64,000 bases of DNA from Candidatus Undivivens industriae (GTDB taxonomy: Bacteria > Omnitrophota > Gorgyraeia > Gygaellales > Profunditerraquicolaceae): contig JAAYZR010000015.1 in assembly GCA_012514745.1 (NCBI GenBank), forward strand, positions 7,479 to 71,478. Direction: 5' to 3'. Shown in pieces: positions 3,445 to 64,000 of this stretch; position 1 is the stretch's first letter, and every line of letters begins with the position of its first letter. The notes beneath the pieces are model-generated. The model saw only the letters and a list, made by a program, of their open reading frames with translations. It searched no databases and was not told where the DNA came from. Made by a program: the position numbers and the translations under genes.

Positions 3445-3465
3445 ATGCCTCCGTGTATTCTTCTT

Positions 3466-3536
3466 ATTCCGGGGACACAATACTTAATTCACGCCCGGCT
3501 GTGTTTATGATAATTAAGTATTGTGTCCCCGGAATT
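3466..3536. repeat. REPIN: inverted pair of 25-bp REP (AATTCCGGGGACACAATACTTAATT) with a 22-bp spacer, in the murF–mraY junction
   Basis: Forward copy at 3466..3489, inverted copy at 3512..3536. It contains the murF stop codon. Confidence 0.9.
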
Positions 3537-4950
3537 CAAACACTTTCTCCATCCGCATCCCGCGCGAACCTTTGACCAACACGAGGTCTCTGCGGGTAAC
3601 CTTAAGCGTATCGCGCAGAATACCGGCTGCTTGCGCGGAATCAGCGCAGCAGAATACCTTGTCCGCCGCGAACCCGGCATCCAGCGCGGCCCCGGCGGCG
3701 GCGCGGGCGAGCCCGCCGACAGCCACGAGGACATCGCATACCCCGGCGGCCCGCGTTCCGGCCAGGCGGTGAAACTCGCCGGAGTCCGGCCCCAATTCCA
3801 GCATATCCCCCATCACCAGCACTTTCCTGCCTACGGCGGTTATCGCCCCCAGAGCCTCGACGGCACGCTCAAACGAAAGCGGATTGGAATTATATGTATC
3901 GTCTATGAACACCGTCACATCGCTCTTGAACAGGCTCATCCTGCCGGACGGAAAATCAAAACCGCCTAATTTAGCGCATATCCGATCGTAATCTATACCG
4001 AGTATCCTGCCGACCGCGGCCGCGGCCAGGGCGTTATAAACGTTATGCGCCCCCACGGTCTTCAACCGGCATGGGATTTTCCTCCCGCGCCCGAGCAGAA
4101 ACTCCACTCCGCGCCGCGTGGTTTTTATCCCGGAAGCGATAAAATCGGCTCCCGGAGACATCCCGTAACCGAATGCCCGGCGCCTCTTGACCAGCGGAAA
4201 CAGCATTTTATCGTCGGCATTAAGTATCGCTGCCCCCGGGCGGCGCAGGAATTTCAACAGAGACGCCTTTTCCTTCAGAACCCCGTTCAAACTGCCGAAA
4301 TGTTCCAGGTGAGAAGGCCCTATATTGGTAATAACGGCCATTGTCGGCCTGCAGACCGCGGCAAGATAAGCGATCTCGCCCGGGTGGTTGCTACCCAGCT
4401 CAAAGACAGCCGCCTGGTGCGAGGCCTTCAACTCCAGCAACGCCAGCGGCATTCCTATATGATTATTCCTGGTGCCCCGGTTTTTCAACACCCTGTAACC
4501 GGCGGAAAGCGCGCAGGCGATCATATCCTTGGTTGTGGTCTTGCCGTTAGAACCGGTCACGGCGACCACCGGTATATCGAAACGCATTCTGTGGAAATGC
4601 GCGATAGCGGCAAGCGCCCTGACCGTGTCTTTGACCACAACCACGTCCGGCCCTGACGGTATCCCTGAAAGGCCGCGCCTTGCCGTAACCAGACAGGCAG
4701 CGCCTTTGCGCGCCGCCTCCGCCAGAAAATCATGCCCGTCGAAATGCTCCCCTTTAACCGCGACAAAAACCTGACCCGGCACTACAGAACGGGAATCTAT
4801 AGAGACACCGCGCATACTCCTCTCAACGCTGCCGGGACGTACCAGTCCCCTACTGGGACGTGCCAGCCCCCTACTGGGACGTGCCAGTCCCGTACAGGGA
4901 CGTGCCAGTCCCCCGCCGGTAGCCTTCAGGATCTCTGAGAGCGTAAACAT
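3514..4950 (-). CDS. murF: UDP-N-acetylmuramoyl-tripeptide--D-alanyl-D-alanine ligase
   Basis: 478 aa with Mur ligase motifs (GSNGKTTTK). The last 7 codons and the stop lie inside a REP copy. The N-terminus contains 4×21-bp tandem repeats (4834..4917). Confidence 0.9.
   Translation of the reverse strand: MFTLSEILKATGGGLARPCTGLARPSRGLARPSRGLVRPGSVERSMRGVSIDSRSVVPGQVFVAVKGEHFDGHDFLAEAARKGAACLVTARRGLSGIPSGPDVVVVKDTVRALAAIAHFHRMRFDIPVVAVTGSNGKTTTKDMIACALSAGYRVLKNRGTRNNHIGMPLALLELKASHQAAVFELGSNHPGEIAYLAAVCRPTMAVITNIGPSHLEHFGSLNGVLKEKASLLKFLRRPGAAILNADDKMLFPLVKRRRAFGYGMSPGADFIASGIKTTRRGVEFLLGRGRKIPCRLKTVGAHNVYNALAAAAVGRILGIDYDRICAKLGGFDFPSGRMSLFKSDVTVFIDDTYNSNPLSFERAVEALGAITAVGRKVLVMGDMLELGPDSGEFHRLAGTRAAGVCDVLVAVGGLARAAAGAALDAGFAADKVFCCADSAQAAGILRDTLKVTRRDLVLVKGSRGMRMEKVFEFRGHNT
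4834..4917. repeat. Intragenic 4 × 21-bp tandem repeat in the murF 5′ coding region
   Basis: GGGACGTRCCAGYCCCCTACT ×4. It encodes the N-terminal (T)GLARPSR heptapeptide repeats of MurF. Confidence 0.85.
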
Positions 4951-19800: not shown

Positions 19801-20181
19801 TCACCGTTTCTCCCGCACGAAGAATTCCGCGGCGGCGGCGGCGATCTCCGCCTTTTCGCGGTTGAACACCTCGACCTGCAAGGTCACGATATTCTTGCGC
19901 ACGCGGATTATCCTGGCCTCGGCAAAGATATCACCCAGCGCCTGTTTCAGGAATCTGATGGTAAACTTCACCGTGAGGAAACTGCTCCCGGCATACCTGA
20001 CCAGCAGAGCGTTGGCCGCGGCGGTGTCGGCTAAAGCGGCTATGGCCCCTCCGTGCAAACTGCCGTGCGGATTGGTAAACCTCCGGCGGAAAGGAAGCTT
20101 CAGCAGGGCCCGCCCGTCCTCCAGTTTCAGCACCTGTATGCCCAATAATCTCTCGAATTCAGCCTGGACTTTCTTTTCCAT
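19801..20181 (-). CDS. PaaI/hotdog-fold thioesterase
   Basis: …HGSLHGGAIAALADTAAANALL… is the PaaI-family signature. Confidence 0.75.
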   Translation of the reverse strand: MEKKVQAEFERLLGIQVLKLEDGRALLKLPFRRRFTNPHGSLHGGAIAALADTAAANALLVRYAGSSFLTVKFTIRFLKQALGDIFAEARIIRVRKNIVTLQVEVFNREKAEIAAAAAEFFVREKR

Positions 20182-20187
20182 ATTCTT

Positions 20188-21193
20188 AATTCCGGGGACA
20201 CAATACTTAATTCAAGAAAACGACAAGAAATCGTGTTAGATTTTACCATTTTCTTGCGTCTATTATAAGAGAATAGAATTATAGCATAAGTTTCTAATTC
20301 CGGGGACACAATACTTAATTCCCCTTCTCAAATTATACGGCTCCGCGGGATACCGTTTGTTCTCGGAAGGATTTTCTTGAGATAGCGGCCAAACCTCATC
20401 TGCTCCATAAATGGCGCGCTTTTTGTATAAACCAACAAGAAGGAGGCTTTCAATGGCAAGGATAGCGAGATTAGTCGTGCCCGGAATCCCCCACCACATT
20501 GTGCAGAGAGGCAACAGACGCCAAGATGTTTTCTTTAACGACGATGACAGAAGGGCCTATCTTAATTATCTAAAAGCATACGCTATTCCTTCTGGGATAG
20601 AATTCCTGTCATATTGTTTAATGGATAATCACGTGCATATTATTGGTATCCCGAGTAACAAGGATAGTTTTGCCGACGGTTTCGGAGAAGCACATCGCAG
20701 GTACACAAGAATGATCAATTTTAGAAAAGGATGGAGAGGATATTTGTGGGAAGGCAGATTCAAATCGTACCCCTTAGGGGGCGCTTATTTATATGCCGCG
20801 CTTCGTTATATAGAAATGAATCCTGTAAGAGCGGAAATGGTGAAGAACGCCTGGGACTATCCATGGTCAAGCGCAAAAGCACATGTCTTGAACCACACTG
20901 ACATTTTACTAACAAATAATTGTATCGCTTCGGAAGTGGAGGACTGGAGATCTTTTCTTTCCGAAGATGACAAACAAGATCACGCCGACTTATTAGAAAC
21001 GCATTTGATGAGCGGACGGCCGTTGGGAGATAATAAATTTATCGAGAAGGTAGAAAGATTAACCGGCAAAATACTGTATAAGCAGAAACCGGGACCGAAG
21101 AAGGCTGAGGATTAATTATACGGGGATACGATACTTAATTATCGCATCTCCGGCATGAGCTGCTTAATAATTAAGTATTGTGTCCCCGGAATT
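20188..21193 (+). mobile_element. RAYT/REP locus: REP-associated tyrosine transposase gene flanked by REP copies (2 direct upstream, one REPIN downstream)
   Basis: REP at 20188..20212 and 20296..20320. RAYT CDS. Degenerate REP 21116..21140 plus inverted REP 21169..21193. Confidence 0.8.
20453..21115 (+). CDS. REP-associated tyrosine transposase (RAYT, TnpA_REP; IS200/IS605-like Y1 HUH transposase)
   Basis: MARIARLVVPGIPHHIVQRGNRRQDVF…, HUH motif in …LMDNHVHIIG…, catalytic Tyr region …YLYAALRYIEMNPVRA…. Start set at ATG 20453 (AGGAGG 7 nt upstream). The track start 20411 is an upstream in-frame Met. Confidence 0.85.
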   Translation: MARIARLVVPGIPHHIVQRGNRRQDVFFNDDDRRAYLNYLKAYAIPSGIEFLSYCLMDNHVHIIGIPSNKDSFADGFGEAHRRYTRMINFRKGWRGYLWEGRFKSYPLGGAYLYAALRYIEMNPVRAEMVKNAWDYPWSSAKAHVLNHTDILLTNNCIASEVEDWRSFLSEDDKQDHADLLETHLMSGRPLGDNKFIEKVERLTGKILYKQKPGPKKAED

Positions 21194-21196
21194 ACG

Positions 21197-21270
21197 CGCG
21201 CCTGGCAGGACTCGAACCTGCAACGCCCAGCTCCGAAGGCTGGCGCTCTATCCAATTGAGCTACAGGCGC
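21197..21270 (-). tRNA. tRNA-Arg (anticodon TCG)
   Basis: Hand-folded cloverleaf: acceptor GCGCCUG/CAGGCGC, D-arm GCUC…GAGC, anticodon stem CCAGC/GCUGG with loop CUUCGGA (anticodon UCG), T-arm GCAGG-UUCGAGU-CCUGC. CCA is not encoded. Confidence 0.8.
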
Positions 21271-21454
21271 ATAATTAATGTGTACTTGCGCAATTCCTCA
21301 TAAGCGCAAGGTGCGCATAATTAATGTGTACTTGCGTAATTCCTCATAAACGCAAGGTACGCATAATCAATGTGTACTTGCGCAATTCCTTACAAGTGCA
21401 AGGTACGCATAATTAATGTGTACTTGCGCAATCCCTTACAAGTGCAAGGTACTC
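21271..21454. repeat. Tandem repeat, 4 × 46 bp, directly abutting the 5′ end of tRNA-Arg
   Basis: Units at 21271, 21317, 21363 and 21409 (about 90 % identical). Each unit contains the inverted repeat CTTGCGC…GCGCAAG. Confidence 0.85.
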
Positions 21455-21559
21455 AAAATCCAAATCTTCAGCGGCGGGCGCATAAGCGCAACGCGCGCGC
21501 ACACACGGTACTTTCATTTTTCCAGGAATCTATAACCCCGCACCCAGGGCCCGCTTGTA

Positions 21560-30300: not shown

Positions 30301-30422
30301 AGTGGGATTTTATACCGCATACACGTTGATCCCGGCCGCATCACCGTCTCAAAATACACGGCCGCAACAATTTGTTTCAGTATAACACACCGCGTTCAAA
30401 AAGCAATAGAAAAATCTTTTGC

Positions 30423-30475
30423 TTCCGGGGACACAATACTTAATTATAATAATTAAGTATTGTGTCCCCGGAATT
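30423..30475. repeat. REPIN (5-bp spacer) at the dnaB 3′ end
   Basis: Forward copy 30423..30445, inverted copy 30451..30475. The dnaB stop TAA is at 30474..30476. Confidence 0.9.
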
Positions 30476-37155: not shown

Positions 37156-37339
37156 GCTTTATTCCGGATCCAAATTAAGAGCTTTTTACCGTCATCGCGG
37201 GTTAAAGGCGAAGAACCAGGCTTCCGCCGGGAGTTTTCCTCGTCCGCCGCTGAAACACCGGCGAGACCCCGTAATCCGCCTTTTCAACTCTCTATTTTCG
37301 ACTTTCGATTCTCTATTTTTTTCGCCGGAGGCGAAAAAA

Positions 37340-37410
37340 TTGCCCGGTGAGGACTCGAACCTCAACGCTCAGACCCAAATTCTGATGTGCTACCATTACA
37401 CTACCGGGCA
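37340..37410 (-). tRNA. tRNA-Gln (anticodon TTG)
   Basis: Hand-folded: acceptor UGCCCGG/CCGGGCA, D-arm GUGU…GCAC, anticodon stem UCAGA/UCUGA with loop AUUUGGG (anticodon UUG), T-arm UGAGG-UUCGAGU-CCUCA. Confidence 0.75.
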
Positions 37411-41703: not shown

Positions 41704-41770
41704 AATTCCGGGGACACAATACTTAATTGTGTGTGCTTTTAGGAATAATTAAGTATTGTGTCCCCGGATT
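41704..41770. repeat. REPIN between the TPR lipoprotein gene and the small basic ORF
   Basis: Forward copy 41704..41728, inverted copy 41747..41770 (1-nt deletion). The spacer GTGTGTGCTTTTAGGAAT is homologous to the spacer of the 45427 REPIN in reverse. Confidence 0.9.
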
Positions 41771-41777
41771 ACGTTTA

Positions 41778-45338: not shown

Positions 45339-45426
45339 TTTTCATTCCTCCTGAATGGAACCTTGGAACTAAAACCAGAGGCCCCTGTTTTTTCCGGCGA
45401 AGCTCCGGCTCCCCCGGTACATGGTC

Positions 45427-45492
45427 ATTCCGGGGACACAATACTTAATTATTTCTAAAACCACACACAATTAAGTATTGTGTCCCCGGAAT
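45427..45492. repeat. REPIN between the ferredoxin and rubrerythrin-like genes
   Basis: Forward copy 45427..45450, inverted copy 45469..45492. The rubrerythrin-like stop abuts it. Confidence 0.9.
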
Positions 45493-45493
45493 C

Positions 45494-48973: not shown

Positions 48974-49104
48974 TACATTCGGGATGAAAGACAAGTTGGG
49001 TTCTGTTGGTTACTGTAACCGAAAATCGAAAGTTGACCGTCTCGCCACTGAAGCGTTGGCGGTTTCGTGCGCTGTCCAAAAAACTTACTGAACAGCACAC
49101 TCCC
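48974..49104 (+). repeat. Family-2 mosaic intergenic element (about 131 bp), full copy A
   Basis: About 85 % identical to the reverse complement of 52335..52474. It contains GGTTACnGTAACC and GCCRCYGAAGCGTTGGCGG inverted repeats and the terminal hairpin GTGCGCTGT…ACAGCACAC. Confidence 0.85.
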
Positions 49105-49400
49105 CGGAATTCAAGAGGTTTTGTAGTATTTTACTGCCGCCCTCCGGGGCTGTCAAACATTATTTTTAAGACATAGGTGTAACTTGCTGCGGCAATTAAA
49201 GTTATAGCATACAGCCATCAAAAGGGCCCGGCAGGCGATTTCTACAGTAAAAGGAACGGATCTAAGCAGTTCAACAGTTTCACTACAAAGGGTTGTCGAA
49301 GGAGTCAACCGCGGCGCGCCGGGTAGATTGCTTCAAGAAGGACGGCCGACTTTCATCCGGCTTACCGCCTCCACTAACCGGGCCCCTCATAATGCGTTAT

Positions 49401-49720
49401 ATTTAATCCCCTCGCCCAGAAATCCCCGGGTTTTAACCCGGGGGTACCTTAGCCTATAGGATGGCTAAGTATTCACCTGTGTGTTATACCTTAGCCTATA
49501 GGAATAACACCCTGCCTTAAAGGAAAGGCAGGTGTTCACCAGTGTGAAAGTATTCGCTCGTGCGTTATACCTTGGCCAATTGGGATAACACCCTGCCTTT
49601 AAAGGAGAGGCAGGTGTTCACCAGTGTGAAAGTATTCGCTCGTGCGGTACACCTTAGCTTATTGGAAAGCTAAGTGTTCGCTCGTGCGAAGGAGCCGCGG
49701 GCTTTAGCCCGAGGGGCTCC
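49401..49720. repeat. Composite repeat region: 28-bp GGATTAAAT/CCGGGG module (inverted), a CCCCGGG hairpin, about 3 tandem ~82-bp units (49446..49688), and a GGAGCCGCGGGCTTTAGCCCGAGGGGCTCC hairpin
   Basis: Units: 49446..49487 (partial), 49488..49568, 49569..49650, 49651..49688 (partial). Each full unit contains CTGCCTTAAAGGAAAGGCAG and TTCACCAGTGTGAA hairpins. Confidence 0.8.
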
Positions 49721-49839
49721 ACAATAGTTACAACGCCGGATCTTTAAGTTCCTTGATCTCCAAACCCGAGAAGCTGATTTCCAGCGGACTGTTGATTTGC
49801 TGCGGTTTGATTAATTGGTACTGTGCGCTCGGCTCTGTT

Positions 49840-51132
49840 TTAGCGCCCTATTCCTTTATATAGGAATCCGAATCGCTCCATTGTCTCCGGATTAAAAATG
49901 TTCCTGCCGTCTATGATAAACCGGCTGCGCATCACTTTTTTAAGTTCGGCCGGGTCAAGGCGCCGGAATTCCTCCCATTCAGTAACTACCAGCAGACAAT
50001 CCGCTCCTGTGGCGGCGGCGTAGGCGTCACGGCAGAACTTCACCCCCTTTAATTCCCGCGCGGCTTTAGGCATCGCGTGCGGATCATAAGCCCGGATCCT
50101 GGCGCCTGAGCGCTGCAGCGTAACTATGAGCTCAAGAGCGATGGAATTACGTATGTCATCGGTGTTCGGTTTGAAGCTTAAGCCCAGCACGGCGATGGTC
50201 TTGTTTTTTATTTTACCGAGCCCAGCTTTTACTTTCTTGAAGACGACTTTCTTCTGCTCCTTGTTTATACTGCGCACTGCTTTCAGCAATTCAAAGTTAT
50301 AGCCTTTTTTCTGGGCGATATGAATAAAGGCGTCCAGGTCTTTGGGAAAACAATACCCCCCGAACCCGGCCCCGGCGTCGAGAAAAGAGGCGCCGATGCG
50401 CTTGTCGAGCCCCATGGCGTGCGCCACCTGCTTGACATCAGCCCCGACAAGCTCGCAAAGATTGGCCACGGCGTTTATAAAGGATATCTTGGTGGAAAGA
50501 AAACCGTTGCAGGCATGCTTGATGATCTCCGCCGTGGGAATATTGGTCACTACAACCGGGGCATTGATCGGGGCATAGAGCCTGCGCATTATCTTCCCGG
50601 CCTTCTCGCTTTCCACCCCTATCACAATGCGGTCGGGATGCATGGTATCGGAAATGGCCTGCCCCTCACGCAGGAACTCCGGGTTGGAGGCCACGTCGAA
50701 TTCGTATTTGCCGCGCGTTAACCTTTCCACGGTCTGCCGGATACGTTCCCCGGTCTGTACCGGGACCGTGGATTTAGCGACGATCACTTTGTAGCCGTTC
50801 ATAGACCCGGCGATCTCCTGCGCCGTATATTCCACCGCCGAAAGGTCCGCGCCGCCGTCAGCGTTGGCCGGCGTGCCCACGCAAATGAAAATAATATCCG
50901 ACTTGCGCGCGGCTTCTTTGATGCTGTGAATAAACCCTATCCTGCCGGACTTTCTGTTCTTTCTTATCAACTCATTCAGCCCGGGTTCATAAATGGGAAC
51001 GCCGCCTTTCCTCAGTCTTTCCAGTTTCCCGCGGTCGTTGTCCACGCAGAGCACTCTATTGCCGATCTCCGCTAAGCACGCCGCCGTCACCAATCCTACG
51101 TATCCGGCACCTATCACGCAGATGTTATACAT
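49840..51132 (-). CDS. ugd: UDP-glucose 6-dehydrogenase
   Basis: MYNICVIGAGYVGLVTAACLAEIG… with a catalytic Cys region (GFGGYCFPKD). Confidence 0.9.
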   Translation of the reverse strand: MYNICVIGAGYVGLVTAACLAEIGNRVLCVDNDRGKLERLRKGGVPIYEPGLNELIRKNRKSGRIGFIHSIKEAARKSDIIFICVGTPANADGGADLSAVEYTAQEIAGSMNGYKVIVAKSTVPVQTGERIRQTVERLTRGKYEFDVASNPEFLREGQAISDTMHPDRIVIGVESEKAGKIMRRLYAPINAPVVVTNIPTAEIIKHACNGFLSTKISFINAVANLCELVGADVKQVAHAMGLDKRIGASFLDAGAGFGGYCFPKDLDAFIHIAQKKGYNFELLKAVRSINKEQKKVVFKKVKAGLGKIKNKTIAVLGLSFKPNTDDIRNSIALELIVTLQRSGARIRAYDPHAMPKAARELKGVKFCRDAYAAATGADCLLVVTEWEEFRRLDPAELKKVMRSRFIIDGRNIFNPETMERFGFLYKGIGR

Positions 51133-51137
51133 TTAGA

Positions 51138-52148
51138 TTACTCCTTATCCTTCTTGCGTTTAGCGCCCTTCGAGTTCTTCTGCTGCCATTCCCACGCCGA
51201 GGATATTATCTGTTCCAGGCCGAGCTTGGGCCTCCAGCCAAAGAGTTCTTCGGCTTTAGCGTAGGAGGCCACCAGTTCCGCGGCGTCCCCGGGCCTGCGC
51301 GCGGCTATTTTGACCGGGAGGGGACTGCCGGTGATTTTTTCGACGGACGAGACCATTTCTTTGACGCTGTATCCCCTGCCGCTGCCCAAGTTTAAGGCGG
51401 CGTTTTTCACGCTCTTGTCCAGCGCCTCCAAGGCCAGTAAATGCGCCCGGGCCAAATCCATCACGTGTATGTAATCCCTGATACAGGTACCGTCGCGCGT
51501 GGGATAGTCATCCCCGAAGATGTTCAATGCCGGGATATCACCCGCCGCCGCCTTCAGCGCGTTGGGAAGTAGATGCGTCGCCTCTTCAAGCGGCTGCCCT
51601 ATCCTGCCGCTCGGGTGCGCTCCGGAAACGTTGAAGTAACGCAAAGCCAGATAATCCATCTTTCCGGCGGCGGCGCAGTCACGCAATATCTGCTCCACCA
51701 TCATCTTGGAAGTTCCATAAGGGTTCTCCGGCCGCAGGGGGGCTTCCTCGTTCACCGGCACCAGCTCCGGCTGTCCGTAAACCGCGGCCGAGGAAGAAAA
51801 AATGAATTTGCGCGCGCCGTGCTTCAGGCAATGTTGAAGCAGGTTGACAGATCCCCAGACGTTGTTGTCGTAGTACTTCAACGGCTCGCTCACCGACTCC
51901 GGGACCACTATCGAGGCCGCGAAATGCAAGACGGCATCGAAGCGGAAGCGCGAAAAAAGATTCTCCAGATCCTGCGCGGACCGCAGATCGCCCCGCACGA
52001 ATTCCACGCCCTCCGGGACGCGCTCCCTCCTGCCGGTAGATAGATCGTCGAACACCACCGCTTCTCTTCCCTGCTCAAGCAAGAGGCTCAACATATGCGA
52101 ACCGATATACCCGGCACCGCCGGTGATCAGAATGAGGTCATTTTTCAA
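51138..52148 (-). CDS. galE: UDP-glucose 4-epimerase (NAD-dependent epimerase/dehydratase)
   Basis: ITGGAGYIGSH…YxxxK. The likely start is TTG 52148 (GGAG RBS). The track ORF's first 13 aa derive from a degenerate REP. Confidence 0.8.
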   Translation of the reverse strand: MKNDLILITGGAGYIGSHMLSLLLEQGREAVVFDDLSTGRRERVPEGVEFVRGDLRSAQDLENLFSRFRFDAVLHFAASIVVPESVSEPLKYYDNNVWGSVNLLQHCLKHGARKFIFSSSAAVYGQPELVPVNEEAPLRPENPYGTSKMMVEQILRDCAAAGKMDYLALRYFNVSGAHPSGRIGQPLEEATHLLPNALKAAAGDIPALNIFGDDYPTRDGTCIRDYIHVMDLARAHLLALEALDKSVKNAALNLGSGRGYSVKEMVSSVEKITGSPLPVKIAARRPGDAAELVASYAKAEELFGWRPKLGLEQIISSAWEWQQKNSKGAKRKKDKE

Positions 52149-52160
52149 CGTTAACTCCGT

Positions 52161-52185
52161 AACTCCGGGGACACGATACTTAATC
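52161..52185. repeat. Degenerate single REP (AACTCCGGGGACACGATACTTAATC) at the galE 5′ end
   Basis: 3 mismatches to the consensus. Confidence 0.7.
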
Positions 52186-52334
52186 AAGCCGCAGAATGCG
52201 GCGCAGGTTACCCCGTAGAGTGCCGGGAAAATGTCGAAGAGATTTCCCCGGTATCTTACGACATGGGGTTAATTTGGGAAGCTCCCCAAGGGGAGCTTCA
52301 TTACTCGGTAACGCTTACGGTCACGAAGCCCGTT

Positions 52335-52474
52335 AGTGCGCTGTTTGATAAGTTTTTTACAGCACACAGAGGCCGCCAACGCTTCGGCGGCGGGACGGTC
52401 AAATTTCGCCTTTCGATTTTCGGTTACGGTAACCAACAGAACCCAACTTATCTTTTTCCCCGAATGGGTCCCCC
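52335..52474 (-). repeat. Family-2 mosaic intergenic element, full copy B (inverted relative to A)
   Basis: Hand alignment with copy A across its full length. Terminal hairpin GTGCGCTGTTTGATAAG…CAGCACAC. Confidence 0.85.
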
Positions 52475-52727
52475 TCCGCTTTTTCCTCCCCTCGATGAGG
52501 AGGATTTAGGAGAGATATTAATCTTCCCTGTCCTCCGATGGAGAGAATGAAGGAGGGGTACAAGACTAAAAACAAGGGCATTGTAACCGGGAAACGACAG
52601 CCGAGATTTAATCAAACCGCAGAAATCCCTGCTTTTCAAGCCGGTTATAAGAAACAATCTTAAGGATTGGAGCCGGATTTTTCAATGCTTATTTTGAACA
52701 TAAAGGATATTTGCTGCTTAATATTCT

Positions 52728-53858
52728 TTATCTTACCGCTTTTTTAAGCAGTAGCAGGGCGAGACGAATGCGGTTTTTCATCCCGCGGTTCCGCCAGACG
52801 CAAAGCAAATAATGCATGAACACAGGTAATATGCCCCGTACCGGAAGGCCGAATATTATCCCGCAGGCCCGGTCGTTTGCCATCGGGATGATATAGCCCG
52901 GGTCAAAAGTCCGGTATTCCCTCGGCGGAAGCGAATCCATATCGTTTAGGATATTCCTGGCGCAGGATTCGCCCTGGGTGATGGCGAATTGCACCGACAT
53001 ACGTAAACAACCCTGCCCTGCGGATAAACAGGCGTTGTCCCCGGCGGCAAAACACGTCCGGGATATCCGCAGACACTCATCTACCTTCAGTCTGCCTTGC
53101 GGCGTGCGCCGCGCGGGAATACGGTCTATAAAATCCGGCGTCTTTACCCCGGCCGCCCAAACCACGATGCTTTTGCCGAAAACACTTCCGTCGGAAAGCA
53201 CGCTCCTGCCGGCGCGCGTCTCAGTAACGGAAAGCCCCGTCTTCACTTCTATCCCGCAGGCGGCGAGATCGTCCTTAACGTAAACCTTCATCCATTCCGG
53301 CAACGGGCCCAGGATCGACGGGGATTTTTCTACGATGATTATCCGGCTCCTGCGCCGTTTTTCGCGCAGGAAAAGCGAAAGATTGGAAGCGATCTCGATG
53401 CCGGTATAACCTCCCCCGGCAACCAGGTAATTATCATAACAACCGATTTCGAGGGCCTGGCGGAGTTTCAGGGCGTCGGAAACATTGTCAAGTTTATAAG
53501 TTGACTCGGACAGGGAGACATTCCCGTGGAAATCGGTTTCCGTGCCGCAGGCAAGCAGGAGATAATCGCAGTCGATATTCAGCCCGCTTCCCAGGTGCAG
53601 GCTTCTGCCGTCGGGTGAGACCGCCTGGGCGATATCCTGAATGAAACGCGCCTTTAATCCCGAACAGATATCCTTAAAAGGATATGCCATCAGCCCCGCC
53701 GGGATGCCTCTACCCAGAACGTCCGGCAGCAGAGGCAAGAAATTAAAACACTGTCTCCTGTCCACCAGCGCCGTTTCCAGGTTTTTACCGCGGCGGGACA
53801 ATATCCCGGCAGCAGCCAGCCCGGCGAATCCTCCCCCGACTATCACTACTCGTTTCAT
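52728..53858 (-). CDS. FAD/NAD(P)-binding oxidoreductase, NDH-2 (type II NADH dehydrogenase) family
   Basis: MKRVVIVGGGFAGLAAAG… and a second dinucleotide-binding motif (YLVAGGGYTGIE). Confidence 0.7.
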   Translation of the reverse strand: MKRVVIVGGGFAGLAAAGILSRRGKNLETALVDRRQCFNFLPLLPDVLGRGIPAGLMAYPFKDICSGLKARFIQDIAQAVSPDGRSLHLGSGLNIDCDYLLLACGTETDFHGNVSLSESTYKLDNVSDALKLRQALEIGCYDNYLVAGGGYTGIEIASNLSLFLREKRRRSRIIIVEKSPSILGPLPEWMKVYVKDDLAACGIEVKTGLSVTETRAGRSVLSDGSVFGKSIVVWAAGVKTPDFIDRIPARRTPQGRLKVDECLRISRTCFAAGDNACLSAGQGCLRMSVQFAITQGESCARNILNDMDSLPPREYRTFDPGYIIPMANDRACGIIFGLPVRGILPVFMHYLLCVWRNRGMKNRIRLALLLLKKAVR

Positions 53859-59303: not shown

Positions 59304-59369
59304 AATTCCGGGGACACAATACTTAATTATTGTTGTCGCCTTACAATTAAGTATTGTGTCCCCGGAATT
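59304..59369. repeat. REPIN in the divergent era–mutS intergenic region
   Basis: Forward copy 59304..59328, inverted copy 59345..59369. Confidence 0.9.
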
Positions 59370-63779: not shown

Positions 63780-63885
63780 TGCGCTGTTAAATAAGCTCTT
63801 TAGACAGCGCATTCCCCTCCTTCATCATCCCCATCGAGGAAAAGGAAGATTAGTTGAACTCTGTTGGTTCCCGTAACCGTTGCCG
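63776..63885 (+). repeat. Family-2-related rearranged element (terminal hairpin + CTGTTGGTTCCCGTAACC module) at the mutL 3′ end
   Basis: Hairpin AGTGCGCTGTTAAATAAGCTCTTTAGACAGCGCAT. …CTCTGTTGGTTCCCGTAACCG matches the core of copies A and B. Confidence 0.7.
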
Positions 63886-63908
63886 AATTAAGTATTGTGT
63901 CCCCGGAA
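63886..63908. repeat. Single inverted-orientation REP downstream of mutL
   Basis: AATTAAGTATTGTGTCCCCGGAA, adjacent to a family-2 element. Confidence 0.85.
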
Positions 63909-64000
63909 CCCGGAACCCGGCCTATCCGCACAATTCCTGCGACAGGTTCTCCACCTTGTAAGTGGGGCGTTTATAAATGGAACTCCCCGCTATCTTTAGC

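Follow-up and report, generated by a model that had tools for sequence, protein, structure and literature searches.

A Likely TIRtron and Its Dispersed Repeat Hairpins in an Omnitrophota Genome

Introduction

In Candidatus Undivivens industriae (Omnitrophota), a 64,000-nt stretch of contig JAAYZR010000015.1, hereafter the window, carries a tyrosine transposase gene bracketed by copies of a 25-nt repeat that recurs elsewhere in the window, also as inverted pairs. An initial annotation read the locus as an active, domesticated REP-associated tyrosine transposase (RAYT) with its REPINs. The question raised by the locus is which kind of enzyme and repeat it represents, and whether the repeat units move.

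Results

The transposase gene and its bracketing repeats

The gene at 20,453..21,115 (+ strand), whose ATG is closely preceded by AGGAGG, encodes a Y1/HUH tyrosine transposase of 220 aa, with the HUH motif at H60-V-H62 and the catalytic Tyr119 within RYIEMNP. The product aligns with Y1 transposases (Pfam Y1_Tnp, 2.4e-10); its earlier description as a 221-aa HUH-Y1 protein of RAYT type is thus sound as to the HUH-Y1 domain and the RAYT superfamily, and off by one in length. The AlphaFold2 model (pLDDT 83.5) is nearest in fold to TnpA_REP, with a sequence alignment to 4er8 that covers only residues 50–141. H60, H62 and Y119 are invariant across 21 aligned homologues, and the gene is intact, retaining every residue invariant among them. 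The transposase does sit alone: one copy is present in the window, at the same chromosomal locus and with the same neighbours in 7/7 carrying contigs from several samples. No tnpB-like ORF adjoins it in the window's ORF list, and a promoter/terminator scan of 20,100–21,300 gave no signal above shuffled expectation.

Two exact copies of the repeat lie upstream on the + strand, the outer at 20,188..20,212 and its direct repeat at 20,296..20,320, with the ATG 132 nt further on. An exact inverted copy lies downstream at 21,169..21,193 (− strand), 2 nt from the 3' end of a tRNA-Arg gene, in the arrangement originally reported. To this is added a degenerate + strand copy with six mismatches at 21,116..21,140, right after the stop codon, which pairs with 21,169–21,193 (−18.7 kcal/mol). 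The arms bracketing the gene extend to 26 nt and are 100% complementary (20,187–20,212 or 20,295–20,320 versus 21,169–21,194).

The 25-nt repeat and its hairpins

Searching the window for AATTCCGGGGACACAATACTTAATT with up to three mismatches recovered all 15 copies previously counted, against 0.00 expected in 100 shuffles; the degenerate copy is a 16th. Copies start at 3465/3512, 20,188, 20,296, 21,169, 30,421/30,451, 41,704/41,747, 45,426/45,469, 52,161, 59,304/59,345 and 63,886, within 1–2 bases of the positions first listed, and all occupy short intergenic spaces between core genes. The edges of the conserved unit are sharp at 25 nt. An Rfam scan of the whole window at the gathering threshold returned two tRNAs only, and an E-value scan of 49,000–52,800 returned no match.

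The repeat had been called an imperfect palindrome, which the fold check contradicts: as single-stranded DNA the lone 25-mer has an MFE of 0 kcal/mol, 200/200 shuffles fold equally well or better, and neither end carries a GTAG/GTGG tag. Folding is confined to inverted pairs, with stems of 24–25 bp, energies of −23.5 to −27.2 kcal/mol and z of about −11 to −13. Six such pairs are present in the window. They satisfy the operational REPIN definition of Bertels and Rainey (a conserved sequence of some 21 nt present once on each strand within less than 130 bp, the two copies enclosing a variable spacer and folding into a hairpin), so that the recurrence as dispersed inverted pairs, as originally described, is borne out. 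The spacers were given as 5–22 bp; the lower end is correct, whereas the range reaches 28 nt.

Besides the pair downstream of the transposase gene, a hairpin with a 22-nt loop occupies the interval between a murF-like gene and mraY (3465..3536), its right arm containing the stop and final six codons of the murF-like gene. One with a 5-nt loop lies immediately 3' of dnaB (30,421..30,475), where the dnaB TAA overlaps the outer AA of the repeat. Two with 18-nt loops are paralogues of each other, at 41,704..41,771 and, immediately after the stop of a ferritin gene, at 45,426..45,493; their spacers (41,729–41,746 and 45,451–45,468) are reverse complements at 16/18 positions and not exactly, as had been stated. 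The last, with a 16-nt loop, separates a divergent era-like gene and mutS (59,304..59,369). A single + strand copy with three mismatches at 52,161..52,185 overlaps an 8-nt tandem duplication (TAACTCCG x2, 52,152–52,167), which ends at CCG/GGGACAC and is reduced to one unit in a related lineage. The other single copy, at 63,886..63,910 (− strand), has its outer end duplicated in tandem (7 nt, CGGAACC x2, 63,904–63,917).

Over all loci compared, close pairs were convergent in 37 cases, tandem in 13 and divergent in 0. Information content outside the 25-mer was about 0 at all 20 flanking positions on both sides, revealing no target-site consensus. A MITE of a DDE transposon was rejected since, on direct reading of the flanks, no matching nucleotides indicative of a target-site duplication stand directly outside the arms of the six window hairpins. 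Derivation of the loops from sequence just inside the repeats of the gene-bearing element was also discarded, no similarity being visible by eye.

Class of the enzyme and of the repeat

The motifs DNHVHII, YLWEGRF, RYIEMNP and YPWSSA of the 220-aa protein fit the TnpA_Y1 subclass 2.1 signatures of PMC6006769 (Table 1), namely NHVH or NH[YF]H for HuH, W[EQ] for the W motif, YIELNP or Y[IV]HLNP for the Y motif, and an SS motif in the proximal tail. Subclass 2.1 corresponds to Group 1 RAYTs and, according to Quentin et al. 2018 (PMC6006769), probably to the TIRYT/TIRtron class; a C-terminal extension with helix-turn-helix similarity (Bac_DnaA_C, HTH_23, HTH_28) is a further criterion. Within the 25-nt repeat, GGGGACAC fits GGGGWSAS, the motif of TIRYT terminal inverted repeats (TIRs) described in 2013 by Di Nocera, De Gregorio and Rocco (PMC3733652). 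Judged from these motifs, the enzyme probably belongs to subclass 2.1/Group 1 RAYTs and probably to the TIRYT class.

The likeness extends to the whole layout: TIRtrons combine a Y1 gene of about 220–240 aa with NHVH, W[EQ], YIELNP-like and SS signatures, low copy number and chromosomal location with long TIRs that are not self-complementary, contain GGGGWSAS and at times make up dimer-arranged families of moderate abundance. The host differs, being Omnitrophota here, and the population is relatively dense, with 12 dispersed copies in 64 kb, compared with about 12 per replicon for the 16-mers flanking Group 1 genes (PMC5581495). We therefore consider it likely that 20,188–21,193 is a TIRtron and that the dispersed inverted pairs are mini-TIRtrons, for which nicking and rejoining near the outer G-run is proposed below. 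The pairs carry no gene and are non-autonomous; they are REPIN-like since their 24–25-bp stems and variable loops (5–28 nt) fit the operational definition. Quentin et al. found no REP-like structures in subclass 2.1 (PMC6006769), and Bertels et al. restrict REPINs to Groups 2 and 3 (PMC5581495).

Under a canonical RAYT–REP/REPIN reading of the E. coli/Pseudomonas type (Group 2/3), a domesticated RAYT would instead copy self-folding, GTAG-guided REP hairpins. The Y1/HUH fold nearest to TnpA_REP, the single gene copy in the window and the dispersal of extragenic inverted pairs would all suit such a system. However, the 25-mer neither folds alone nor carries GT[AG]G, the protein scores 51.8 bits on NCBIfam NF047646 (REP_Tyr_transpos) against an equivalog cut-off of 80, its alignment to 4er8 by sequence is limited to residues 50–141, its motifs are those of subclass 2.1 and not of 2.2 or 2.5, and the repeat is common to several phyla rather than lineage-specific. 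In the E. coli REP/BIME system (PDB 4ER8; subclass 2.2/Group 2 RAYT), the REP, unlike the 25-mer, folds into a hairpin by itself and bears GTAG as its 5' guide. REPs are species-specific. E. coli TnpA_REP, at 165 aa, lacks the C-terminal extension, unlike the 220-aa protein. Pseudomonas and Neisseria REPIN–RAYT systems are closer in form, sharing inverted conserved arms with a variable spacer that yield a long hairpin, a single-copy cognate gene, and positions that persist over strain divergence. Yet the present arms lack the palindromic form of REPs, the enzyme paired with them is of Group 1, and the arm sequence is common to phyla instead of co-diverging with the host. The canonical reading was rejected as highly improbable.

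Homologues and repeat conservation across phyla

To the initial annotation the repeat family appeared undescribed. The repeat is, however, not confined to this lineage: the exact 21-mer core occurs at no fewer than 112 loci under about 15 phylum-level labels, and its GGGGWSAS core was published in 2013. Full-text literature searching with repeat substrings, which does not reach sequences given only in figures, returned no paper.

A homologue search of the protein gave 5176 hits at E ≤ 0.001. Among 80 metagenomic homologues (44–71% identity), 60 have a recognisable and correctly oriented repeat copy beside them, typically 36 nt before the ATG and 0–60 nt past the stop. The association of gene and repeat thus holds over about 60 independent homologous loci. 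Three homologues with 47–50% protein identity (loci L110, L003 and L084) are bracketed by copies with 0–2 mismatches to the 23-mer. In homologue-flanking copies, repeat positions 7–14 (GGGGACAC) are the most conserved and positions 5–6 the least. Whereas the papers cited here describe only a shared 8-nt motif, here the whole 25-mer is conserved across phyla. The dispersed copies of the window amount to 0.19 per kb, compared with a mean of 0.065 per kb beside the 80 homologous genes; some homologous loci are denser (0.48 per kb at L116), and the view that the family is far denser than typical REP families was overstated.

A protein search of plasmids yielded distant homologues only, annotated 'transposase' and at most 38% identical. 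Two of these (35–36% identity) have other TIRs in a similar layout, with GGGGWSAS kept as GGGGACAG and GGGGTCAG; on the P. aeruginosa plasmid NZ_CP116719.1, there are likewise two direct copies upstream and one inverted copy downstream. The exact 21-mer was absent from viral contigs, and the sole match of a 66-nt hairpin among PLSDB plasmids covered 21 nt of its loop and is attributable to chance.

That the carriers are mostly MAGs would fit a cross-phylum artefact arising from adapters, vectors or mis-binned contigs. The 25-mer, however, is carried by cultured isolates of Kordiimonas as well as by contigs or chromosomes 0.5–4.5 Mb long, its copies are contig-internal, paired in inversion around unique loops and at fixed distance from a homologous gene, and the carrying loci span 33% to 69% GC. 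Given the isolates, the megabase contigs and the fixed geometry, we rejected contamination, whose probability is practically negligible.

Strain comparison and turnover

At the ferritin site, a 72-nt segment (45,412–45,483) is missing in strains L197, L206 and L223. L223 is 99.75% identical to the window and lacks exactly these 72 nt between direct CCGGGG repeats, one partly within one arm of the hairpin and the other 9 nt past the other arm. Since a more distant lineage (97.8%) retains the hairpin, it was lost rather than primitively absent. In that more distant lineage, the loop is inverted in L199–L205, and the outer end at this site varies among strains from one to three 7-nt units. The 41,704 hairpin has identical arms in both lineages, with 3/18 loop differences and a 4-nt indel at its outer edge.

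Changes at the outer end recur: each of the three sites for which the two lineages were compared has either an indel or a small change in unit number there. Across phyla, 26 perfect tandem duplications overlapping the outer end were found, with the last periodic base at repeat positions 3–11 (mode 7–9) and never further in. Allowing one mismatch, such a duplication is present in 31/288 copies, compared with 2.75% at random positions.

The available contigs showed no presence/absence polymorphism at 3465, 30,421, 59,304 or the gene locus, and no new insertion was seen in the approximately 60 kb compared among strains. For activity of the system, as first claimed, support is limited to a single precise loss, a single flipped loop and micro-indels at the repeat ends, and includes no new insertion. 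Recent copy-and-paste of whole REPINs is not supported: the 41,704 and 45,426 hairpins are both occupied in lineages about 2.2% diverged, which places their duplication before that split. Turnover is slow, with hairpin positions stable over about 2% genome divergence.

These data also bear on an autonomous, selfish IS200/IS605-type insertion sequence in a recent MITE burst. The arms of all copies are near-identical (0–3 mismatches), as a burst would leave them, and Bertels et al. 2017 (PMC5581495) describe Group 1 as the RAYT group that most resembles insertion sequences, duplicates making up 6% and some members being plasmid-borne. Against this, the window has one gene copy, whose locus and neighbours are constant in every carrying contig, tnpB and small subterminal hairpins are absent, lineages 2.2% apart keep their hairpins at the same positions, and searches of viral contigs and plasmids did not recover the exact repeat. 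IS200/IS605 TnpAs such as those of IS608 and ISDra2 share the catalytic fold, but IS608 has small subterminal hairpins, no TIRs, many copies and often tnpB, unlike the element at 20,188–21,193. On the single copy in the window, the constant locus and the missing tnpB we set this reading aside as improbable.

Discussion

The hairpins could alternatively be DNA or RNA elements that serve the host (mRNA 3' stabilisers, attenuators or protein-binding sites) and are under selection, with the Y1 gene a passenger or inactive, and with the loss, loop flip and end indels produced by hairpin-induced replication errors. Three of the six hairpins lie against or across the upstream gene's stop codon, arms are invariant between lineages while loops change, no new insertions were seen, and the loss is bounded by direct repeats, all of which such elements would accommodate. 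On the other side, the scan of 20,100–21,300, covering the 21,116–21,193 hairpin alone, found no terminator-like site; no T-run straight after any hairpin was seen in flanks read by eye; and one hairpin lies inside the dcw operon. The Y1 gene is intact, with all residues invariant in the 21 homologues kept. The 25-mer stands at a fixed distance around the Y1 gene in dozens of unrelated genomes, as would suit a substrate of the enzyme and not a host regulatory site. We regard the host-element explanation as unlikely.

For the TIRtron reading, we propose that the DNA, when single-stranded or extruded as a cruciform, would be recognised by the enzyme through its stem. Strand nicking and rejoining would then occur close to the outer G-run (about AATTCCG^GGGACAC). 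By analogy with IS608 TnpA and E. coli TnpA_REP, catalysis would use Tyr119 and a metal bound by the HUH motif, and in trans the hairpin units could be excised, re-inserted or flipped. We model the proposed reaction on IS200/IS605 TnpA: one strand would be cut at two sites alike in their 5' sequence and then resealed precisely, with no target duplication. The spread of the duplication boundary over positions 3–11 marks no single bond. The papers cited here on subclass 2.1, TIRYTs and Group 1 RAYTs report no activity, substrate or biochemical evidence.

Direct repeats flanking a hairpin are a classic substrate of replication slippage. The 6-nt repeats flanking the ferritin-site hairpin are such a case, and the single loss therefore needs no enzyme. 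We infer the enzyme as the cause of the strain polymorphisms, as we do the exact cut site. The loops of different hairpins are mostly unrelated, contrary to what simple copying of whole hairpins predicts, and since a lone 25-mer cannot fold, the model leaves the recognition of single copies unexplained.

The TIRtron is a known kind of element; what is added to the initial annotation is a repeat nearly unchanged across phyla and the clean loss of a hairpin between strains. Tentatively, a large Group 1 RAYT/TIRYT clade spanning a dozen or more phyla may share one near-invariant substrate, AATTCCGGGGACACAATACTTAATT, with REPIN-like hairpins maintained by nicking and rejoining at the outer G-run. 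If this holds, REPINs would not be confined to Group 2/3 RAYTs, nor such repeats to single lineages, contrary to two current generalisations. A substrate and a predicted cut site would then be defined for Group 1 RAYTs (subclass 2.1, probably TIRYT), the largest and most widespread RAYT group. The 55–72-nt hairpin is a candidate minimal natural substrate; its predicted break region derives from a natural excision allele and from repeat-end duplications in many phyla, and hairpin turnover is measurable from metagenomic reads in a well-sampled natural population. Protein identity has fallen to about 47%, yet the 25-nt site is almost unaltered, in contrast with the fast co-evolution of REPs and RAYTs in Groups 2 and 3. 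If this contrast holds, it would point to a recognition site under exceptionally strong constraint, or to repeated horizontal spread.

Classification of the Y1 element

The Y1 tyrosine transposase gene (20453-21115, forward strand) encodes 220 aa and has an AGGAGG motif close upstream of its ATG; a tblastn search of the window found no second copy. The product matches Pfam Y1_Tnp above the cut-off (2.4e-10), and its sole PDB sequence match is E. coli TnpA_REP (4er8; E 1e-4, residues 50-141), in agreement with the superfamily named in the initial annotation. H60, H62 and Y119 are invariant among homologues, as judged from an alignment that also shows a conserved C-terminal extension, and the AlphaFold2 model (21 homologues) has a mean pLDDT of 83.5. 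No DNA-binding fold could be assigned to that extension. The NCBIfam model REP_Tyr_transpos scored 51.8 bits, below its cut-off of 80; the protein therefore misses the curated NCBI threshold for the name REP-associated tyrosine transposase. Together with the failure of the 25-nt repeat to fold alone, this score argues against the canonical RAYT with palindromic REPs that had been proposed. At the same locus in a contig of JGI 3300009642 (L213, 1078-1572), the Y1 gene was called at only 164 aa, which may represent a truncated or frameshifted allele.

TnpA_Y1 proteins were split into subclasses by Quentin et al. 2018 (PMC6006769), whose Table 1 equates subclass 2.1 with the Group 1 RAYTs of Bertels et al. 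2017. The window protein carries NHVH, W-E, Y-I-E-M-N-P and, beyond the core, an SS motif and the conserved C-terminal extension; at the sequence level, this set agrees with the one that Table 1 gives for subclass 2.1. The system thus belongs to a known kind, subclass 2.1/Group 1 RAYT, and adds a new member from Omnitrophota. This kind is probably the TIRYT/TIRtron class: subclass 2.1 takes in 20 of the 26 TIRYTs described by Di Nocera et al. 2013 and "probably corresponds" to TIRYTs pending further analysis (PMC6006769).

Instead of REPs, TIRYT genes have long terminal inverted repeats (TIRs) on their flanks, and most of these repeats share GGGG[AT][CG]A[CG] (PMC3733652). The window repeat resembles them in carrying GGGGACAC at positions 7-14. 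On the P. aeruginosa plasmid NZ_CP116719.1, a homologue of 35% identity is flanked by a 38-nt TIR with GGGGACAG in the same layout as the window, with two direct copies upstream and one inverted copy at the stop codon. Another homologue, of 36% identity and on the R. rubrum plasmid NC_007641.1, is flanked by a 19-nt TIR with GGGGTCAG, placed 36 nt ahead of the ATG and 3 nt past the stop. Given this architecture in the window and in annotated isolate plasmids, the element at 20188-21193 is a TIRtron. A GTAG-REP/RAYT pair was considered and rejected on the same architecture and on the NCBIfam score.

Conservation of the repeat across phyla

In a scan for exact matches with one genome per species, the 21-mer core CCGGGGACACAATACTTAATT was found in at least 112 loci, and a tally of record titles gave about 15 phylum-level names among the loci listed. 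These carriers include Omnitrophota; Alpha-, Gamma- and Zetaproteobacteria; Desulfobacterota; Planctomycetota, Elusimicrobia, Clostridia and Desantisbacteria; and Nitrospirae, Spirochaetota, Saccharibacteria, WOR-3 and Hydrogenedentota. The repeat is therefore not the new lineage-specific REP family initially suggested. Three cultured Kordiimonas species are among the carriers listed, as are contigs or chromosomes of 0.5-4.5 Mb, and the GC content of carrying loci ranges from 33% to 69%; this excludes an adapter or binning artefact. The exact repeat sequence was absent from papers searchable by text, from viral contigs and from PLSDB plasmids.

A Y1 homologue is present in 11 of the 112 listed loci. 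At three loci with 47-50% protein identity (L110, L003, L084), copies that differ from the 23-mer by 0-2 mismatches lie on both sides of the gene. A metagenome scan ascertained by protein found a recognisable, correctly oriented copy (≤6 mismatches) beside 60 of 80 homologues at 44-71% identity, typically 36 nt ahead of the ATG and 0-60 nt past the stop. Positions 7-14, 18-19, 22 and 24-25 of the repeat are best conserved, positions 5-6 and 15-17 least, and at about 35% protein identity GGGGWSAS alone survives in the TIR. The 25-nt site is thus kept while homologues diverge, and is far more conserved than the protein.

Dispersed copies and their genomic setting

At ≤3 mismatches the window contains 15 copies of the 25-mer AATTCCGGGGACACAATACTTAATT, with none expected from 100 dinucleotide-preserving shuffles; a looser search added a 16th, degenerate copy (21116-21140, 6 mismatches). 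The initial annotation had thus delimited a real system correctly, placing the repeats to within 1-2 bases. Its description of the 25-mer as an imperfect palindrome did not hold: as single-stranded DNA the lone copy is unstructured (MFE 0 kcal/mol), and 200 of 200 shuffles fold equally well or better. Folding is restricted to inverted pairs, with 24-25-bp stems, loops of 5-28 nt and energies of -23.5 to -27.2 kcal/mol (z about -11 to -13). Such pairs lie at 3465-3536, 30421-30475, 41704-41771, 45426-45493 and 59304-59369, while the degenerate-arm pair at 21116-21193 reaches -18.7 kcal/mol; single copies start at 52161 and 63886.

Pooling the window with the 112 loci listed from the one-genome-per-species contig scan gave a conserved unit with sharp 25-nt boundaries and information content near zero in the 20 nt on each side. 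Close pairs in this pool were 37 convergent, 13 tandem and 0 divergent, which sets the outer end as AATTCC... and the inner end as ...TTAATT, the same as around the gene. By the operational definition of Bertels and Rainey (conserved inverted arms <130 bp apart with a variable spacer), the six window pairs are REPINs; structurally, they are gene-less TIRtrons. The hairpin population accompanying the Y1 gene is therefore REPIN-like. For Group 1 RAYTs, 16-mers flanking the genes were reported to occur only about 12 times genome-wide (Bertels et al. 2017), REPINs were later stated by Bertels et al. to be confined to Groups 2 and 3, and no REP-like structures were found for subclass 2.1 (Quentin et al., PMC6006769). 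Di Nocera et al. (PMC3733652) described "moderately abundant" TIR families as dimers. Dispersed copies reach 0.19 per kb in the window versus a mean of 0.065 per kb beside the 80 homologous genes, a comparison scored with the window's own consensus and so disadvantaging homologues with diverged repeats. Among loci with ≥4 kb of flank, 24 of 34 have zero dispersed copies and a few are denser (e.g., 0.48 per kb in L116). One contig (L159, Ga0105104_10075829, 280-1440) carries ten same-orientation copies clustered to either side of a homologous Y1 gene, an arrangement that departs from the usual inverted bracket.

The window is contained in the JGI metagenome contig Ga0209723_1000319 (93.6 kb), and the same gene set recurs in the NCBI MAG GCA_036847085.1 and in contigs of several other samples. 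Neighbours are core chromosomal genes, including ligA, dnaB, bamA, lpxC/D, mutS/L and the dcw cluster, and the named DnaB relatives among the matches listed are all Candidatus Omnitrophota (76-79% identity). All repeat copies in the window occupy short intergenic spaces, and three hairpins extend up to or into the stop codon of the preceding gene. The repeat encodes (at 3514-3536) the last six codons (FRGHNT) and TAA of a murF-like ORF (3514-4950, minus strand), and the 69-nt murF-mraY spacer inside the dcw cluster is wholly filled by the hairpin in 10 of 10 contigs examined. The outer AA of the repeat supplies the dnaB TAA, the ferritin gene TAA abuts the repeat, and the downstream repeat at 21169-21193 lies 2 nt from the 3' end of tRNA-Arg(TCG) (21196-21270, minus strand).

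Tandem arrays also lie in these surroundings. A 21-bp repeat (4834-4913, 3.8 copies) falls in the 5' part of the murF-like ORF, whose start differs between gene callers (478 or 433 aa). A 46-bp repeat (21268-21459, 4.2 copies, 91% matches) begins at the tRNA-Arg(TCG) 5' end, and each unit holds a TTGCGC...GCGCAA inverted repeat.

Strain variation at the hairpins

Syntenic contigs of other samples, gathered by exact look-up of window protein sequences, revealed three haplotypes around the ferritin gene: the window type (L216 and L219, identical), a second type (L223, L197, L206; L223 99.75% identical to the window) and a third at about 97.8% identity (L217, L218 and L220-L225, L223 being counted in the second). 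In the second type the hairpin at 45426-45493 is missing. The empty allele reads ...TAA GATTCCGGGG GAGCC, and the occupied one GATTCCGGGG, arm ACACAATACTTAATT, loop, arm AATTAAGTATTGTGTCCCCGGAATGACCATGTACCGGGG and GAGCC. The missing segment is exactly 72 nt (45412-45483) and lies between direct CCGGGG repeats. Because the more distant lineage keeps the hairpin, the empty allele represents loss, not the ancestral state; it occurs in two independent assemblies whose k values per contig names (119 and 141) both exceed the hairpin.

In the ~97.8% lineage the 18-nt loop at the ferritin site is inverted, and the outer right end carries 2-3 tandem 7-nt units (GAATGAC/GAATAAC) versus one. At 52161 the window has TAACTCCG twice right before GGGACAC, and the other lineage one unit. 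At 41704 the arms show 0/50 differences and the loop 3/18, with a 4-nt indel at the outer edge. Each of the three sites comparable between lineages thus shows a change at the repeat's outer end. In the available syntenic contigs, sites 3465, 30421, 41704 and 59304 and the gene locus gave no further case of a hairpin gained or lost. The initially proposed recent copying and pasting of whole REPINs is not supported; the two spacers described as reverse complements do correspond, at 16 of 18 positions, and the match is not exact.

Strain differences also occur elsewhere. An 82-bp tandem repeat (49467-49667, 2.5 copies), without Rfam match, lies within a long intergenic region that shows indels between strains of 316 nt (L217 type) and 42 + 78 nt = 120 nt (L223). 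A 428-nt segment (~52197-52624) of the window lineage is lacking in the 97.8%-identical one; 17-nt direct repeats (TTCTGCGGYTTGATTAA) delimit it at the inner end of the 52161-52185 copy, and pieces of it recur at 48987-49062, at 63860-63879 and in other Omnitrophota loci (L004, L040, L065), which suggests a second repeat family. At ~37200-37340, beside tRNA-Gln (37340-37410), related strains carry a three-gene insertion (L217/L218 18863-20001) lacking in the window lineage, including an NTP_transf_2/HepT-like toxin-antitoxin pair.

Outer-end duplications and a candidate cut site

In an unbiased search of the 55 nt surrounding the outer end of 288 copies, with the window kept in both sets and its sister contigs left out, 26 perfect tandem duplications overlapped the repeat. 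The last periodic base of these tracts lies at repeat positions 3-11, at positions 7-9 in 17 of 26 and past position 11 in none of the 26; the boundary is a cluster, not a single bond. Duplications right before GGGACAC in different phyla include TAATTCCG, TGAATTCCG and CAGTTCTG, each present twice. With one mismatch allowed, 31 of the 288 copies (10.8%) carry such a duplication versus 2.75% at random positions. The duplicated unit extends over 0-4 nt of unique flank, which marks the event as local and post-insertion.

The excision junction within CCGGGG, the clustering of the duplication boundary at CCG|GGG and the place of GGGGACAC as the most conserved block together point to a candidate cut site at the outer G-run. 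We infer from these sequence patterns that the Y1 enzyme may nick and rejoin single-stranded DNA near AATTCCG^GGGACAC, at the base of the two-arm stem. The 72-nt loss would then be an IS608-type same-strand double cleavage with resealing, using two cut sites with a common 5' sequence and leaving no target duplication. Replication slippage between the 6-nt direct repeats across the hairpin, which needs no enzyme, yields the identical 72-nt deletion. Under enzymatic cleavage, the loop inversion and end duplications would arise as side products of recurrent cutting and religation. The proposed mechanism does not account for the unrelated loops in most hairpins or for how single unfoldable copies are recognised.

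Together, our results describe a 25-nt repeat that stays near-invariant from phylum to phylum while protein identity falls to about 47%. An excision allele found in nature and the duplications at the repeat end provide a testable candidate cut site for Group 1 RAYT enzymes.
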